Below the pieces are notes generated by a model. It was given only the letters and a program-made list of their open reading frames with translations, made no database searches and had not been told where the DNA came from. 64,000 nucleotides of DNA from Octopus vulgaris (lineage: Eukaryota). Position numbers and translations under genes: made by a program. Location: NCBI GenBank assembly GCA_951406725.2, contig OX597832.1, forward strand, positions 54,746,001 to 54,810,000, read 5' to 3'. Position 1 is the stretch's first letter. Each line of letters starts with the position of its first letter. Of this stretch, positions 1,821 to 48,292 are shown in pieces.

Positions 1821-1928
1821 GCTTACAACTACATAAAGTTGAAAACACCGGTTCCCTTCCGATCACCGAATTTAAACAACATCGAGGGCCTGGATAGTAC
1901 TTAGGTGAATGAGCAAGGTGTCGTATGC
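1821..1928 (+). pseudogene. Degenerate 5S rRNA copy
   Basis: gcttacaac...gttgaaaacaccggttcccttccgatcaccgaatttaaacaacatcga.ggcctggatagtactta follows the metazoan 5S rRNA sequence, with substitutions and a 3' deletion, ending ggtgtcgtatgc. Confidence 0.85.
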
Positions 1929-1947
1929 AAAGCCTTATTTCTCGCCA

Positions 1948-2149: not shown

Positions 2150-2315
2150 CATTTGCTAAGTCGTCTTTACGTTCTGAGTTCAAATTCCGCCAAGGTCGAC
2201 TTTGCCTTTCATCCTTTCTGGGTGGGTAAAATAAGTACCAGTTGAGCACTAGGGGTCGATGCATTCGACTCATCTCCTCCCCCGAAATTGCTGGCCTTGT
2301 GCCAAAATTTGAAAT
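2150..2315 (+). mobile_element. SINE family A, alternative tail, 5'-truncated
   Basis: tacgttctgagttcaaattccgcc...aaattgctggccttgtgccaaaatttgaaa. Confidence 0.85.
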
Positions 2316-2666
2316 CAGTATTATTATCCTAAGTTGCGTCGTCGCCAGCGACATCCCAATTATAATATATCTAATAATCATTGGGTGTCGCTAGATTCTC
2401 TCCGTGTACTGTGGTCGCAACACAATATACAATAACATCCCATGGCTAACGTTTCACCACACAGCGATATTGGACAGGAAAGTAGAGAAAGAAGTACATC
2501 GCTAGAATAAAATTGATATCTTCTTTTTTTTTTTCAAACTTTCCAAGTACATCTTTATTTTAAATTGTTACTTTAAAAATTCCTTATAAATTTTATTTCA
2601 ATATATATATATATTTTAAAAATTTTTTTCTCAATTTTCATTAGTGTTTTTTCCTCGTAAGTTAAT

Positions 2667-2668
<2 letters not shown>

Positions 2669-2744
<76 letters not shown>
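2669..2744. repeat. (AAT)n microsatellite
   Basis: Direct reading. Confidence 0.97.
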
Positions 2745-2745
2745 T

Positions 2746-2970
2746 TCAAACAAATACATAACAAACCCCAGGACTAACAAAAACATACAGAAAATAGCAC
2801 TACCGGTACCGCACACATCCTACGTAAAAGACTTTCAATACAGTAACCATAAGAGCATCACAACAAACCACAGCACATGGCCAAGATACACAGAGCTGCG
2901 CTCAGTAGTGCAGTGAAAGCACGGGACAAAAATAAGATTACTGAATAATAGTAATAATAATAATAATAAT
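2746..2970 (+). mobile_element. 3' end of an R4/Dong-clade non-LTR retrotransposon in a (TAA)n tract
   Basis: Translates, with a frameshift, to IQKIAL..GTAHILRKRLSI*, a typical R4/Dong C-terminus; followed by a 3' UTR ending in (AAT)n and preceded by (AAT)n. Confidence 0.75.
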
Positions 2971-3127
2971 AACAATATAAATTTCTTACAAACCTAAGAA
3001 ACTGTTCTTGAGCTGTGACATTCAATGAAAAGTAATTAACAACATAGTTAATAATATTTAAATAGAAAAACCCAATGAAAATTGTTAAATGAGAAGCATA
3101 TTGAAGGGTATTACGGTTTTTAACTAT

Positions 3128-5410
3128 TCATCTCAGTCTTTTACCAGCCATGCTACTCATTTTATCAATTATTTCTGGCTTTTGGTAAAACTTGGCATAG
3201 TTTTCCAACCACTTCCGCCTGTAACTCCACATTTCCCGAGCCATCTGTTCTTCCGTGTTTGTTGCTTTCTTCCATGCATTTTCCAGCACATTCTGTTCGC
3301 TTTTGCTATTGTTCTCCTCTTGAATGCTGGATATCATTTTTCGGTCAATTTCCTCGTATTTATCCTTGTGCTTATCAGCTTTCATCTTTGAAAGAACCAC
3401 TTCAGACTTCAAACACAACAGACTGATGTCATCTGAAATGCTTTGCCATTTCAAACTGTTTTGTTTTTTCGTATTCCATAATTTCGTTGGTAAAATTGTA
3501 GGGACATTCGCAGCCCAAGCCCGATAGATTTTAGCTTTCTCAGTACATTTTAAGTAAGTATAATAGGCATGTTCTCTTTTACTTAAATTGGAATTCCATT
3601 TCTTCCTGAATTCTTCTTGGCTGGTCTTCAGTTCCTTCATTTTACTAATATAGTCATTTAGCTGGCCTTTCTTTTCGTTTGTATATTCTCCGGTTCTAAA
3701 CATCCTTTGATTCGATTGTAAAGTTTCATATGTATTGTTATTACTGTTTTCTTTCCCAGTGAAAAGACAAACAGATATATTTCCACTCTGTAGCGGAACG
3801 TATTTCGGTGTTGTGTTATGACAAAGCGGAACTGTAGAGTCCATATCATACGATTCCGAGTTCTGAGATTTATTAAAAGGTTCCGTTGATAATTCAACGC
3901 TGCTTTGTTCCGTGTGATCGGTATCATTCTCGTCATCGATAGTAGAAATGGTGTCGGTATTAGAACTTGTTTCATTAACATCATTAAAATGCTTTTCTCT
4001 CTTATTAACACCAACGATATCAATTTCATTACAGTTGCTCATTACAGTACCTCGTTCATTTTTGTCCTTGCTACATTCTAAATCTTCTTCTTTCTTCGCA
4101 GACATGTTTTCGTTTTTATCTGTAAACAAGCTCTGATCTTTGCAGCATTCTTCGGCTGAATGTTCATCTGTATCCATTAAATCTTGCTTTGCTTGTGGAC
4201 TGGTTTTATATTCAGCGACTTTACTGCTGTTACTCGAGTTAATTTCTTCACCATTCGCGACAATATTCTCATTCTCATCCTCATCCTCATCTTCGTCCGT
4301 GTTTTTCCCTTTATTAATTAAGGCCAACATTTCGGCCCTTAATCGACTGCTAATATCTCCACCTTGTACAGTTCCTATACTATTAATCTCATCTTTACTA
4401 TTAATCTCATCTTCTTCATCCTTATCTTTGGTTTCACTTTCTTCCACATTGGGCATTGTATTAGCTTCCACATCTTCTGCTTTCTCCGGTGAGACAGATA
4501 TTTCATCTTTTAACTTTGATTGATCATCGCTAGATACTTCTTCAATCACACTGTCATCAGCATTATTTGTAGTATCGATATTGCTGACAGATTCCTCTTT
4601 TTCTTCATCATCCACTGGTGAAAGGCATAACACACTTGTATCTCCGTTGTCCACAGGTTCCTCACTATTTTCCAGGTCATCTTTATCTACTTCAGTTTCT
4701 TCTATGTAGCGTTTAGTTTCACCCAACACCTCCTGTACACATTCATAATTAGTGCTCTCTTCATTATCATCATAATTTCCTTTATCAATAGCTGAAAAAT
4801 TACGATTAATATGTTTCAAATTCGTTTGGTTCGTCCCTGGTACAGCATTCAGTATTTCTTCGTTACTACAAGTAACATCTTTAACTTCGTCTATTTTTCC
4901 CTCATCTTCAGTTTCTGACTTAACAGCACACGTTGTCACTTGAGAAACATCTTTCGCAGCATTTTTAATTTCTTCTTGTTCAACGGGAGGAGGTGGAAAA
5001 CAAATGCTAATTTTGGTGGTGCTTTTGCTAGCTTCGTTCATCTGCACAGCCCCTTCGCTTCCTATTGTACTTGACGGAACCATCAAAGTATCTTCGCTGT
5101 TGTTATTTTCAAAAGGAAAATGATTAAAGATAGATTTCAACTGAATCAGTTGCTGAGATCTTGGGATAAATTCCGGGGCATCAGCAGACATTTTAGACTT
5201 TGTAACACTTTTATATTGGCCGTGAACCGGTGTGTCCATCACATCTTCAACCATAGCATTGCTATGGTCCCCTGTCGAGAAAGTAACTTCTTCTTTTATT
5301 GCGACGTTAAGCTTTTGATTGAGAATTTTCATCAATTTTTTAATATCTTCAAAAGTTACAGATTTCTCATACGAATTTTGGTTCCGTGCTTTATGTCTGT
5401 GATTATTCAT
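3128..5410 (-). CDS. Uncharacterised 760-aa single-exon protein: PAM2-like motif, acidic low-complexity middle, Trp-rich predicted-helical C-terminal domain
   Basis: 2283-bp uninterrupted ORF of complex sequence in AT-rich DNA; ATG with A at -3 and an in-frame TAA four codons upstream; SKMSADAPEFIP at aa 72-83; candidate AATAAA at 2592-2597 (minus). Confidence 0.8.
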   Translation of the reverse strand: MNNHRHKARNQNSYEKSVTFEDIKKLMKILNQKLNVAIKEEVTFSTGDHSNAMVEDVMDTPVHGQYKSVTKSKMSADAPEFIPRSQQLIQLKSIFNHFPFENNNSEDTLMVPSSTIGSEGAVQMNEASKSTTKISICFPPPPVEQEEIKNAAKDVSQVTTCAVKSETEDEGKIDEVKDVTCSNEEILNAVPGTNQTNLKHINRNFSAIDKGNYDDNEESTNYECVQEVLGETKRYIEETEVDKDDLENSEEPVDNGDTSVLCLSPVDDEEKEESVSNIDTTNNADDSVIEEVSSDDQSKLKDEISVSPEKAEDVEANTMPNVEESETKDKDEEDEINSKDEINSIGTVQGGDISSRLRAEMLALINKGKNTDEDEDEDENENIVANGEEINSSNSSKVAEYKTSPQAKQDLMDTDEHSAEECCKDQSLFTDKNENMSAKKEEDLECSKDKNERGTVMSNCNEIDIVGVNKREKHFNDVNETSSNTDTISTIDDENDTDHTEQSSVELSTEPFNKSQNSESYDMDSTVPLCHNTTPKYVPLQSGNISVCLFTGKENSNNNTYETLQSNQRMFRTGEYTNEKKGQLNDYISKMKELKTSQEEFRKKWNSNLSKREHAYYTYLKCTEKAKIYRAWAANVPTILPTKLWNTKKQNSLKWQSISDDISLLCLKSEVVLSKMKADKHKDKYEEIDRKMISSIQEENNSKSEQNVLENAWKKATNTEEQMAREMWSYRRKWLENYAKFYQKPEIIDKMSSMAGKRLR

Positions 5411-5844
5411 TCTTATTCTTTATTTTTCAGACGCAAATTTTCCCTCAGAAATTCGAAGGTTGTTTGTTTGAATTATTCCTGGAAATGCTTTGACGCGAAT
5501 CTGTTGACAATTTTTTATCAAATTACAATATCTCTGTTCTTGTACAAATTTAATATCAACGATGTATTTCTAATTTCAGCATATACAAAATATTTTTAAA
5601 AAAACAAAAAAAATTATATATCCGGTAAGTTTCAAATTCGTGTTGTCTCCCAAATCTTCTTTCTAGAAGATTTTTTTCAGTTTGATTTTCAAATGATTAA
5701 CTTTTCCGTTACTGTCAATCGTAGGTCGATGATGTCATGTTTGGAACAACAAAACATATTTAGAATGAAATCTATTTAGAACAACTGGTTTCTTTAGCGT
5801 TCTCAGACTTCCAGAAAACATTCTATAACAGAATAAATTACGTC

Positions 5845-5947
5845 ATATATGTTATTGTGTATGTGTGTGTGTGTCTGTGTACACATGTACGGAGGACAGT
5901 ACATTTTTACTTATATATATATATATATTTATATATGTATATGTATG

Positions 5948-6023
<76 letters not shown>

Positions 6024-6312
6024 CAAACATATCTCTGTGTGTATCTATAAATACACACACACACACACACACATATATGCACGTACATATATATTCATAA
6101 ACACATACGTACACGTGCAAACACGCGCCACACACGCGCGCACACACACACACATACATAGAAGCATACGTTTACGGTTATTGCGTACGTGTATACATGT
6201 ATGCATTAGTATAGTTATATATCTATACGTGTGTGTGGAGATGTGTGCGTGCGTGCATGTGAGTGCGTATGTGCGTGTGCGTGTGCGTGCGTGTGCGTGA
6301 GTGTGCGTGTGT
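5845..6312. repeat. Compound (TG)/(TA)/(CA) microsatellite
   Basis: Direct reading. Confidence 0.95.
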
Positions 6313-6482
6313 TTAAAATCAAACTACAAGGTTAGTTCGTCATCTAGAGAAATAAAAAAAAACTCGTTTATTTATTTATTATTCGATGTCCTGGTTACCA
6401 TGACAACAACTTTTGGGAACAATCTTTTAGATTTTTGTAAAGGCAAAGAGAAACTGGCTCTTAATATAATACCCTAACATTA

Positions 6483-6600
6483 GGTAGCCAATTGGCAGAG
6501 TCATTAGCATGCCGGACAAAAATTGCATAGCGGCATTTTGTCCATCTTTACGTTCTGAGTTCAAATTTCGGCGAAATCGACTTTGCTTATAACCTTTTGA
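6483..6600 (+). mobile_element. SINE family A head fragment, diverged
   Basis: ttggcagagtcattagcatgccgg...tacgttctgagttcaaatttcggcgaaatcgacttt. Confidence 0.75.
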
Positions 6601-13202: not shown

Positions 13203-14316
13203 TGGCGGCGAGCTGGCAGAAACGTTAGCAGGCCGGGCGAAATACGCAGCCGTATTTCGTCTGCTGCTACGTTCTGAGTTCAAATTCCGCCGAGGTCAAC
13301 TTTGCCTTTCATCCTTTCGGGGTCGATTAAATAAGTACCAGTTACGCACTGGGGTCAATGTAATAGACTTAATCCGTTTGTCTGTCCATGTTTGTCCTCT
13401 CTGTGGTTAGCCCCTTGTAGCAATAAAGAAATAGGTATTTCTTCCGTCTTTACGTTCTGAGTTCAAATTCTGCCGGGGGTCGATTAAATAAGTACCAGTT
13501 ACGTACTGGGATCGATATAATCGACTTTATACGTTTGTCTGTCCTTGTTTGTCCTCTCTGTGTTTAGCCCCTTGTGGGTAGTAAAGAAATAGGTATTTCG
13601 TCCTTTACATTCTGAGTTCAAATTCCACCGAGGTCGACTTTGCCTTTCATCCTTTCGGGGTCGATTAAATAAGTACCAGTTACGCACCGGGGTCGATATA
13701 ATCGACTTAATCCGTTTGTTTGTCCTTGTTTGTCCTCTCTGTGTTTAGCCCCTTGTGGGTAGTAAAGAAATAGGTATTTCTTCCGTCTTTACAGTCTGAG
13801 TTCAAATTCCGCCGAGGTCGACATTGCCTTTTTTTCCTTTCGGGGTCGATTAAATAAGTACCAGTTACGCACCGGGGTCGAAATAATCGACTTAATCCGT
13901 TTGTCAGTCCTTATTTGCCCTCTCTGTGTATAGCCCTTTGTGGGTAGTAAAGAAATAGGTATTTCTTCCGTCTTTACGATCTGAGTTCAAATTCCGCCGA
14001 GGCCGACTTTGCTTTTCATCCTTTCGGGGTCGATTAAATATTTACCAGTTACGCACTGGGGTCGATATAATCAACTTAATCCGTTTGTCTGTCCTTATTT
14101 GCCCTCTCTGTGTATAGCCCTTTGTGGGTAGAAAAGAAATAGGTATTTCTTCCGTCTTTACGATCTGAGTTCAAATTCCGCCGAGGCCGACTTTGCCTTT
14201 CATCCTTTCGGGGTCGATTAAATAAGTACCAGTTACGCACTGGGGCCGACTTAATCCGTTTGTTTGTCCTTGTTTGTCCCCTGTGTGTGTAGCCCTTTGT
14301 AGGCAGTAAAGAAATA
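13203..14316 (+). mobile_element. SINE family A concatemer: one head and six tandem bodies
   Basis: Units of ~160-185 bp joined at aagaaataggtatttc; single 20-bp TSD agaagtttt(t/c)gctgctgttt at 13181-13200 and 14317-14336. Confidence 0.93.
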
Positions 14317-45271: not shown

Positions 45272-45906
45272 TTATTTCTCAAGTGCCCAGAATGGGGCTA
45301 AACATAGAGGGGACAAACAAGGACAGACAAACGGATTAAGTCGATTACCCCAGTGCGTAACTGGTACTTATTTAATCGACCCCGAAAGGATGACAGGCAA
45401 AGTCGACCTCGGCGGTATTTGAACTCAGAACGTAGCGGCAGACGGAATACCTATTTCTATTTTTTTACTACCCACAAGGGGCTAAACACAGAGAGGACAA
45501 ACAAGGACAGACAAACGGATTAAGTCGATTATAACGACCCCAGTGCGTAACTAGTATTTATTTAATCGACCCCGAAAGGATGAAAGGCAAAGTCGACCTC
45601 GTCGGAATTTGAACTCAGAACGTAACGGCAGACGAAATAACGCTAAGCATTTCGCCTGGCGTGCTAACGTTTCTTATTTCTTTACTGCCCACTAGGGGCT
45701 AAACATAGAGGGGACAAACAAGGACAGACAAAGGGATTAAGTCGATTACATCGAACCCAGTACATAACTTGGTACTTAATTTATCGACCCCGAAAAGAAG
45801 AAAGGCAAAGTCGACCTCGGCAGAATTTTAACTCAGAACGTAGCAGCAGACGAAATACCACTAAGAATTTCGCCCGACATGCTAATGCTTCTGCCATCTC
45901 GCCGCC
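45272..45906 (-). mobile_element. SINE family A trimer
   Basis: Three bodies; TSD taggcg(g)aagctgtt at 45256-45270 and 45907-45920. Confidence 0.92.
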
Positions 45907-47021: not shown

Positions 47022-48292
47022 TTGGATTGCCAAAAAAGTAATTTCGTTTTTCGCAAATAGATTGAGTTACAATTTTTTTGAATGACTTTTGTCAATGTTA
47101 TGATTTTTTTTCCTTTTGACATTTGATAGCCATTACTTTTAGCTTACTTTAGAAGCAAATTGCCCGTAATTTTGTTCACAGCTGTTCGTTCAGTGTCAAT
47201 TTTAACATGGAGTGCAAAAACGAACATTTTTGCCATATTTTGCGTTTTTGTTTCCGAAAAGGCAAGAAAGTTGTTAAGGCTCATAAAAAGATAAAGTGAA
47301 GTTTATGGTGTCGTTTGCTTAACTGAACATACATGTCAGAATGGTTTCAAAAATTCCGACCTGGAGATTTTTCACTCAAAGATAACCAATATTCTGGTCG
47401 ACCTACTGAAGTTGATGATGACCAAATCAAAGCCATAATTGAATCTGATTGTCATATAATGGTGCGAGAGATTGCAGAGGGGTTAAATGTATCACACACA
47501 ACAATTGAAAATCACTTAGAATGTCTTGGACTCGTTAAGAAGCTTGATATTTGGGTTCCACATAAATTGAAAGAGATTCACTTAATATAACGAATCAATA
47601 TTTGTGATATGCATCTCAAACGCAGCGAAATCCACATTTCTAAAAGCAAATCATGACTGGTGATGAGAAATGGATTGTCTCCAATAACATCAATCCAAGC
47701 AAAAATGACCCAGACAAATCGTATCGAAAACTGAATTGCATCAAAAAAGGTCATGCTGTCAATTTGGTGGGATTACAAGGGTGTTGTGTGTTTTGAGCTG
47801 CTTCCAAGGAACCAAATGATCAATTCAGATGTTTACTGTCAACAACTAATGAAACTGGAGGAAGTAATCACAGAAAAACCGCCAGAATTGGCAAATCGTA
47901 AAGGAATCGTGTTCCACCATGACAACACGAGACCACACACGTCTTTGCTAACTCGTGAAAAATTATTGGAGCTTGGTTGGGAAGTAATGTTACATCTACC
48001 ACATAGTCCTGACCTTGCACTATCAGATTATCATTTATTTTGGAGTGTGTAAAATTCTGTGAATGGTAAAACTTTCAATAATGATGATGACCGGAAATCG
48101 AACTTGCTTCAGTTTGGGGTTGATAAGGACTAGAAGTTCTATAAGCGCGGAATCCTGAATTTGCCAGAAAGATGGCAAAAGGTCATCGAACAAAATGGAA
48201 AATATATATTTGATTAAAGTTCATTCTTTGTATGAAAAAAAATTACTTTTATTTCACACTAAAAAACAAAAATTACTTTATTGCCAACCCAA
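47022..48292 (+). mobile_element. Full-length mariner transposon (mellifera-subfamily-like), 1271 bp
   Basis: TIRs ttggattgccaaaaaagtaattt / aaattactttattgccaacccaa; TA TSD at 47020-47021 and 48293-48294. Confidence 0.95.
47207..48217 (+). pseudogene. Mariner transposase pseudogene
   Basis: MECKNEHFCHIL..., WVPHKL, TGDEKW, HHDNTRPH, HSPDLALSDYHLF; several stops and frameshifts. Confidence 0.93.

Follow-up and report, generated by a model that had tools for sequence, protein, structure and literature searches.

The window analyzed here is a 64,000-nucleotide stretch of the Octopus vulgaris genome (contig OX597832.1, positions 54,746,001 to 54,810,000), and its minus strand carries one frame of 760 codons that runs from an ATG to a stop and has an in-frame stop three codons upstream. 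The features of this gene and its immediate surroundings are given below in window positions.

5411..5803, minus strand: likely unspliced 5′ untranslated region, covered by one jointless contig of run X15 (guessed RNA)
3128..5410, minus strand: single-exon coding sequence, 760 aa, with orthologues P0002 and P0003 that have the same start and stop
5264..5410, minus strand: residues 1-49, N-terminal segment, conserved (98% identical to Argonauta), with a helix that looks amphipathic
5162..5197, minus strand: residues 72-83, PAM2-like motif (Pfam 13.8 bits, E 0.05)
3671..5110, minus strand: residues 101-580, acidic region of low complexity (46% D/E/N/S, net charge -74)
3821..4000, minus strand: residues 471-530, conserved Ser/Thr/Asp/Glu-rich island in the acidic region, 73% identical to Argonauta and 100% to O. 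bimaculoides
3161..3637, minus strand: residues 592-750, domain of three helices in the model, with profile homology to ORF1 of Penelope-like elements (PLEs)
2987..3127, minus strand: likely 3′ untranslated region, reached by contigs of X15 (to 2987), X16 (to 3071) and X20 (to 3110)
2730-2970, plus strand: 3′ end of an R4-like LINE, 240 bp, frameshifted, 160 bp beyond the ORF stop on the opposite strand

An earlier note on this DNA had described the frame as intact, intronless and free of microsatellites in a window whose mariner and LINE frames are all disrupted, and the observation was confirmed. The probability of 760 open codons arising by chance at the window's base composition is ~2e-27, no microsatellite was found inside the ORF, and its sole tandem repeat is an in-frame 18-bp duplication (4378-4413). 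A complexity filter left 215 stop-to-stop frames of at least 55 aa in the window and the 30 kb adjoining the gene on its 3′ side; the runner-up among them is only 177 aa long, and a Pfam scan of 147 of these frames returned one mariner fragment and one match below cutoff. The mariner fragment is a 105-aa piece of transposase (47735-48049, plus strand; Transposase_1, E 1e-18). Elsewhere in the window a SINE-like unit of 157-218 bp forms tandem arrays (13319-14316 and 45286-45892), and a 5S rRNA-like Rfam match (1821-1929, plus strand; 46.9 bits against a gathering score of 38) is likely a pseudogene or a 5S-derived repeat.

The earlier note's further statement, that no TIR, LTR, RT or nuclease motif lies beside the ORF, agrees with what was found, with one correction to the picture of the surroundings. 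No terminal repeats flank the gene, with positions 2300-6600 showing microsatellite repeats only, and pseudo-LTRs and tandem or inverted copies are absent from the same interval. A tblastn search of 94 kb around the gene with three PLE RT-endonuclease proteins found no RT or GIY-YIG remnant, its matches lying only within the ORF1 domain, and no hammerhead motif was among 91 Rfam matches in five loci, though Rfam may miss minimal hammerheads. The correction concerns the LINE end past the stop, which we take to be R4-like from its C-terminal motif. It lies inside a TAA repeat, is 82-84% identical to copies at two other loci (L043 and L044), and is an unrelated multi-copy insertion.

The gene had also been called an orphan, which proved wrong: the protein already has a recorded gene model, has orthologues, and shares its C-terminal domain with at least 149 homologous loci in the genome. 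At the DNA level the gene is single copy, with a genome search returning itself and one 33-nt match (2 of 2 candidates), while the first 110 aa match only the gene itself (1 of 12 candidates); neither near-identical copies nor an attached RT was found. Intact full-length orthologues (100% coverage) are present in Octopus bimaculoides (92% identity) and Argonauta hians (58%). In these gene models the start and stop fall at the same codons and all gaps are in-frame, and the reading of the ORF as an exon of a larger gene was rejected. Conservation with Argonauta is uneven along the protein, with 98% identity at residues 1-49, 97% at 71-100, 73% at 471-530 and 83% at 581-760, compared with 34-51% in the acidic region outside the 471-530 island. 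No squid or cuttlefish orthologue was named. A further protein, P0004, has 325 aa and may be incomplete; its domain shows 48% identity, it falls in the same clade and it has this gene as its best match in the genome. No further relatives of it were found, and it may be a more distant orthologue.

Comparison of the gene with run X15 gave 27 synonymous and 4 non-synonymous changes among 31 listed differences (pN/pS 0.036, binomial p 1e-15), these 31 being the rows listed of more than 300, within residues 453-760 and not random along the gene. All 12 of the listed changes in residues 581-760 are synonymous. The gene is under strong purifying selection, and the earlier note's proposal of a lineage-restricted gene under such selection is borne out. 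All or part of the stretch is contained in runs under seven organism labels (20 rows, 13 studies). None of the listed holders is on record as RNA; X15, X16 and X20 are guessed to be RNA. In three of the four guessed-RNA runs, long contigs span all or most of the ORF with no splice joint, and the fourth has short pieces only. Unique cover in those three runs stops within ~400 bp of the ORF, and two adjacent contigs of X15 together cover 2987-5803. These contigs, which give neither level nor strand, hint at an unspliced transcript of the gene. No poly(A)-signal hexamer of four kinds was present in 2701-3127.

To place the C-terminal domain, we compared the last 180 residues with the genome, and they matched at least 149 other loci at 24-33% identity (150 scored of 797 candidates). 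At least 12 of 13 homologous loci that were fetched carry an RT frame behind the domain or fused to it, and Pfam recognized RVT_1 in 3 of 3 RT frames and GIY-YIG in 2 of 3. A CX4CxxC linker is visible in the translations, and families A, B and C combine the RT, a CX2-5CxxC linker and, at the C terminus, GIY-YIG. PMC8557442 gives the Cys linker as a mark of Neptune/Nematis PLEs, and the donor families are PLEs of the Neptune/Nematis type, taking the two types jointly. The RT frame of families A and B lies in the -1 frame relative to ORF1 and overlaps it, and the overlap contains a TTTTTTA heptamer. This agrees with the Fig. 1 legend of PMC8557442, where a frameshifted ORF1 is an optional part of PLEs; no strong hairpin was found behind the heptamer in family A. 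Young two-ORF families with ORF2 in the -1 frame were seen at L031:3775-7682, L034:3415-7322, L035:2322-6067 and L038:3024-6664, and some copies have ORF1 and ORF2 fused (L041, L042).

A library-wide protein search with the domain collected 95 proteins, and for most of their 93 representatives the label ORF1-like refers to the domain sequence and not to an adjacent RT. A profile built from 41 ORF1-like proteins without any host gene (members of at least 300 aa, ending in the motif seen at the frameshift site) found the gene reciprocally, through residues 592-750, at 105 bits (E 1.8e-33), compared with 6.5 bits for the best of 200 shuffles and -9.3 for the reversed sequence. The gene retains 19 of the 28 columns conserved in at least 60% of other rows, including W605, R612, W632, P641, D689, W713 and W728, and has deleted a loop residue that is conserved in 86% of them. 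The layout around the domain differs. In ORF1-like proteins the domain is flanked by a short head and a basic tail, with median head and tail lengths of 109 and 146 aa in the 41 proteins versus 602 and 8 aa in the gene. The profile places residues 1-49 best at the ORF1 head at a non-significant E of 0.2, so this segment could possibly be a remnant of that head.

The architecture proposed in the earlier note stands in its larger parts, an acidic D/E/N/S-rich stretch and a basic helical C-terminal domain, and its PAM2-like motif falls under the Pfam cutoff. From its composition, as opposed to a dedicated disorder predictor, the acidic region is likely disordered. Residues 581-760 have a net charge of +14 and are helical in the model. 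An AlphaFold2 model of the domain (95 rows) gave three helices with confidence (pLDDT 92.4, pTM 0.81), with no specific structural match: Foldseek against the PDB and viral models returned 0 matches at E 0.001, and the best VIA-align results were Z 9.7 (rmsd 6.1, 124 aligned) and Z 9.1, to syntaxin Habc-like bundles. As a Z of ~13 is the level at which a match has meaning for helical bundles, a syntaxin or ESCRT-III reading of the domain was rejected. A sequence-profile search of the PDB gave no match below E 0.05 and picked up just coiled-coil noise over the ORF1 head. Pfam reported nothing on the 760-aa protein apart from the sub-cutoff PAM2 and no family in more than two of the 95 alignment members, and the ESM Atlas gave no usable feature match for the domain or PLE ORF1, its structure rows being generic helices.

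The PAM2-like motif scored 13.8 bits against a gathering cutoff of 20 (E 0.05). PMC2854688 defines PAM2 position by position as a 12-residue motif with invariant Ala7 and Phe10, and the motif fits positions 3 (hydrophobic), 4, 7, 9, 10 and 12 of the definition as given there. Met74 (position 3), Ala78 (7), Phe81 (10) and Pro83 (12) agree with it; the departures are Met at position 3, where Leu is usual, and Ala76 at position 5 in place of Pro, Val or Thr. The pattern, which was written after the motif was seen, occurred in none of 20000 shuffles and none of the 94 other domain-bearing representatives. The block 71-100 that contains the motif is 97% identical to Argonauta, compared with 34-67% in its flanks.

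A predicted complex of the motif with the MLLE domain of this genome's PABP scored 0.38, compared with 0.02 for the best of three controls, with contact agreement of at least 86% and partner pLDDT of at least 58. The tool's mark is reached by 51 of 78 solved pairs and 2 of 108 mismatched pairs. Passing scores of 0.60 or less came from only 5 of the 78 solved pairs and from all 4 passing mismatches, and 0.38 is therefore a weak pass, which may reflect likeness to solved PAM2-MLLE structures. As for MLLE-bearing proteins in the genome, a PABPC of ~630 aa, intact and in one frame with no coding introns, lies at C23:9276762-9278690, and a second MLLE-bearing frame (661 aa) lies at C10:102.745 Mb. 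Of the genome's 59 MLLE matches, most belong to tandem MLLE frames at C5:130.386-130.419 Mb (L060:2283-7661), where frames of up to 1793 aa repeat the domain at ~91-aa spacing, and these proteins are a possible partner for PAM2 motifs.

Three further loci have a single open frame with the PLE ORF1 domain and no RT:

C13:73653305-73654849: paralogue, 505-aa frame
C13:73661237-73662475: paralogue
C4:53806240-53807547: paralogue

All three are single copy. The C13 genes form a tandem pair, with the 505-aa frame 7 kb upstream of the other, and no PLE RT or GIY-YIG remnant was found in 40 kb around the pair or 30 kb around the C4 gene. The paralogues at C13:73.661 Mb and C4:53.806 Mb are annotated octopus proteins with cluster members in O. 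bimaculoides and Argonauta, the C4 protein being 93% identical to its Argonauta counterpart; no orthologue of the 505-aa gene was seen. Identity between named Octopus vulgaris proteins and the genome is 99-100%. No other close members were present among 150 scored of 718 candidates. In a tree of all 101 rows two of the proteins (C13, C4) fall beside the gene, and in a tree of 52 chosen rows the seven host rows form one clade (99/96) among 45 ORF1-like rows, with both trees midpoint-rooted and the host branches long. One Cys is present in all seven host rows and in none of the other 45. Within the family, group I is the gene and group II consists of the C4 gene and the C13 pair; identity between the groups is just 22-30%, and the alternative in which group I joins PLE family A was not rejected by an AU test (p 0.124). 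The PAM2-like motif is absent from all three paralogues and from P0004, so a mechanism based on a PABP tether cannot be family-wide.

Taken as a whole, the gene is very probably a member of a domesticated PLE ORF1 family, and the domesticated retroelement ORF suggested in the earlier note is supported as its origin, with PLE ORF1 as the donor class. None of the outcomes that the earlier note named as refuting its reading was observed. The RT frame, GIY-YIG, pseudo-LTRs, hammerhead and near-identical dispersed copies of an active PLE were all missing at the gene. What was found is what marks domesticated genes: homology to a transposon protein, low copy number with loss of mobility functions, and an intact, selected frame in several species. 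A retrogene of a spliced host parent was rejected, with no parent found, as was a young TE copy, the gene being single copy and lacking an RT. We consider it highly probable that the ORF1 of an ancestral element would have been fixed without the frameshifted RT-endonuclease ORF and then, probably, duplicated to give the two groups.

As to what the protein does, we give about even weight to a PABP-tethered regulator of mRNA particles. By analogy, PLE ORF1 may bind RNA or oligomerize. The gene's copy would have lost ORF1's basic tail, the part expected to act on RNA, while keeping the helical domain as an assembly module; it would also have gained the PAM2-like motif as a docking site for PABP's MLLE domain. 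The long acidic region would in this way make RNA-protein condensates looser or adjust translation, as L1TD1 does with its glutamate-rich region. The role as an RNA-granule or translation scaffold, as the earlier note phrased it, is weakly suggested by the motif and the modelled complex.

The same origin is compatible with a restriction factor, in which the domain would co-assemble with active PLE ORF1 and the acidic region would block RNA packaging. The genome does hold several young PLE families with near-identical intact copies, the loss of the basic tail and gain of the acidic region would suit such a function, and a defence role is proposed for L1TD1 in PMC11014241. However, a domain with 0 of 12 non-synonymous changes among those listed and 83% identity to Argonauta points to stasis and not an arms race, and with only 24-33% identity to active ORF1s and the widely conserved loop residue deleted, we regard this function as unlikely. 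We assign a similarly low probability to a job away from mRNA, with the acidic region acting as a chaperone of basic proteins (histones, sperm nuclear proteins) or as a spacer and the helical bundle as a generic scaffold. A long acidic region is a typical feature of such chaperones, the three-helix fold is a common one, as its best structural alignment indicates, and the paralogues lack the PAM2-like motif; set against this are the near-identity of the motif block to Argonauta amid diverged flanks and the MLLE complex, which passed, if weakly, over its controls. On balance we favour the PABP-tethered regulator over both the restriction factor and the non-RNA scaffold.

Two readings dispute the origin itself. 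That an old host domain was captured by PLEs would accord with the capture of host and accessory ORFs by PLEs and other retroelements, as described in PMC5408684 and PMC6431247, and in one tree of 46 of the 101 rows (strict anchor) the midpoint separated the host clade, as sister, from every other row. With the paralogues included, though, the host clade nests among the ORF1-like rows, which are separated from one another by a median of 3.1 changes per site versus 3.3 from the gene; named host-type matches occur in Octopus and Argonauta only, and all four genes are single-frame, making this direction very improbable. Least probable of all is that the ORF belongs to a rare transposon as a young or decaying fragment, open by chance or youth. 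It would explain the homology to a TE ORF1 and the lack of introns, but it is refuted in substance by the single copy, the pN/pS of 0.036, the intact orthologues with in-frame indels only, and the lack of an RT, terminal repeats or a hammerhead match. Domestication of a PLE ORF1 is the origin we retain.

LTR elements and DNA transposons are well-known sources of domesticated genes. Among LINE-1-derived sequences, L1TD1 is given in PMC11014241 as the only domesticated gene, and PMC3846280 speaks of no strong evidence in a rotifer for a protein-coding gene from a PLE. We found no protein-coding gene derived from a PLE in the literature searched, which lies outside most subscription journals and Repbase, and the ORF1 domain may already be described in the supplementary alignments of PMC8557442. 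Our fullest reading, which we put forward tentatively, is that octopods have a four-member family from PLE ORF1 that is the first protein-coding domestication from PLEs, and that this gene converged with L1TD1 on an ORF1 domain beside an acidic region, with an additional PABP tether by which translation and mRNA granules would be controlled. If true, PLEs become an added donor class for molecular domestication, four ‘hypothetical’ octopod genes are explained, and the role of ORF1 becomes testable through stable single-copy handles on a domain that has neither a Pfam family nor a solved relative. The parallel with L1TD1 would also suggest a repeatable route from a retroelement ORF1 to a regulator of RNA particles.

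The gene resembles the ORF1 of Neptune/Nematis-type PLEs, as these are presented in PMC8557442, in its 160-aa helical domain. It differs in being single copy and in lacking the RT, GIY-YIG, frameshift site and basic tail, and it has a 600-aa head with the acidic region and PAM2-like motif and is under purifying selection across species. With the PAM2 proteins named in PMC2854688 (Paip1, Paip2, eRF3, Ataxin-2 and Tob) it shares the hydrophobic residue at position 3, Ser 4, Ala 7, Glu 9, Phe 10 and Pro 12 of the motif and nothing else; its own motif has Met 3 and Ala 5 and is below the Pfam cutoff, and its MLLE binding is a weak prediction. The closest parallel in kind is with L1TD1, described in PMC11014241 as a domesticated LINE-1 ORF1p under diversifying selection that increases the translation of some mRNAs and disperses RNA granules through a glutamate-rich region acquired next to its ORF1-derived domain. 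No sequence or fold homology to L1TD1 was found by Pfam, PDB sequence (E 0.05) or fold matching, and no L1 ORF1p domain was matched by Pfam in the protein or among the 25 families listed for the 95 alignment members, and the parallel is one of analogy and not of membership. Unlike L1TD1, the octopus gene comes from a different donor class, and has one ORF1 domain, which is static; like L1TD1, it is a retroelement ORF1 turned host gene, and next to the ORF1-derived domain it has acquired a highly acidic region that is poorly conserved.
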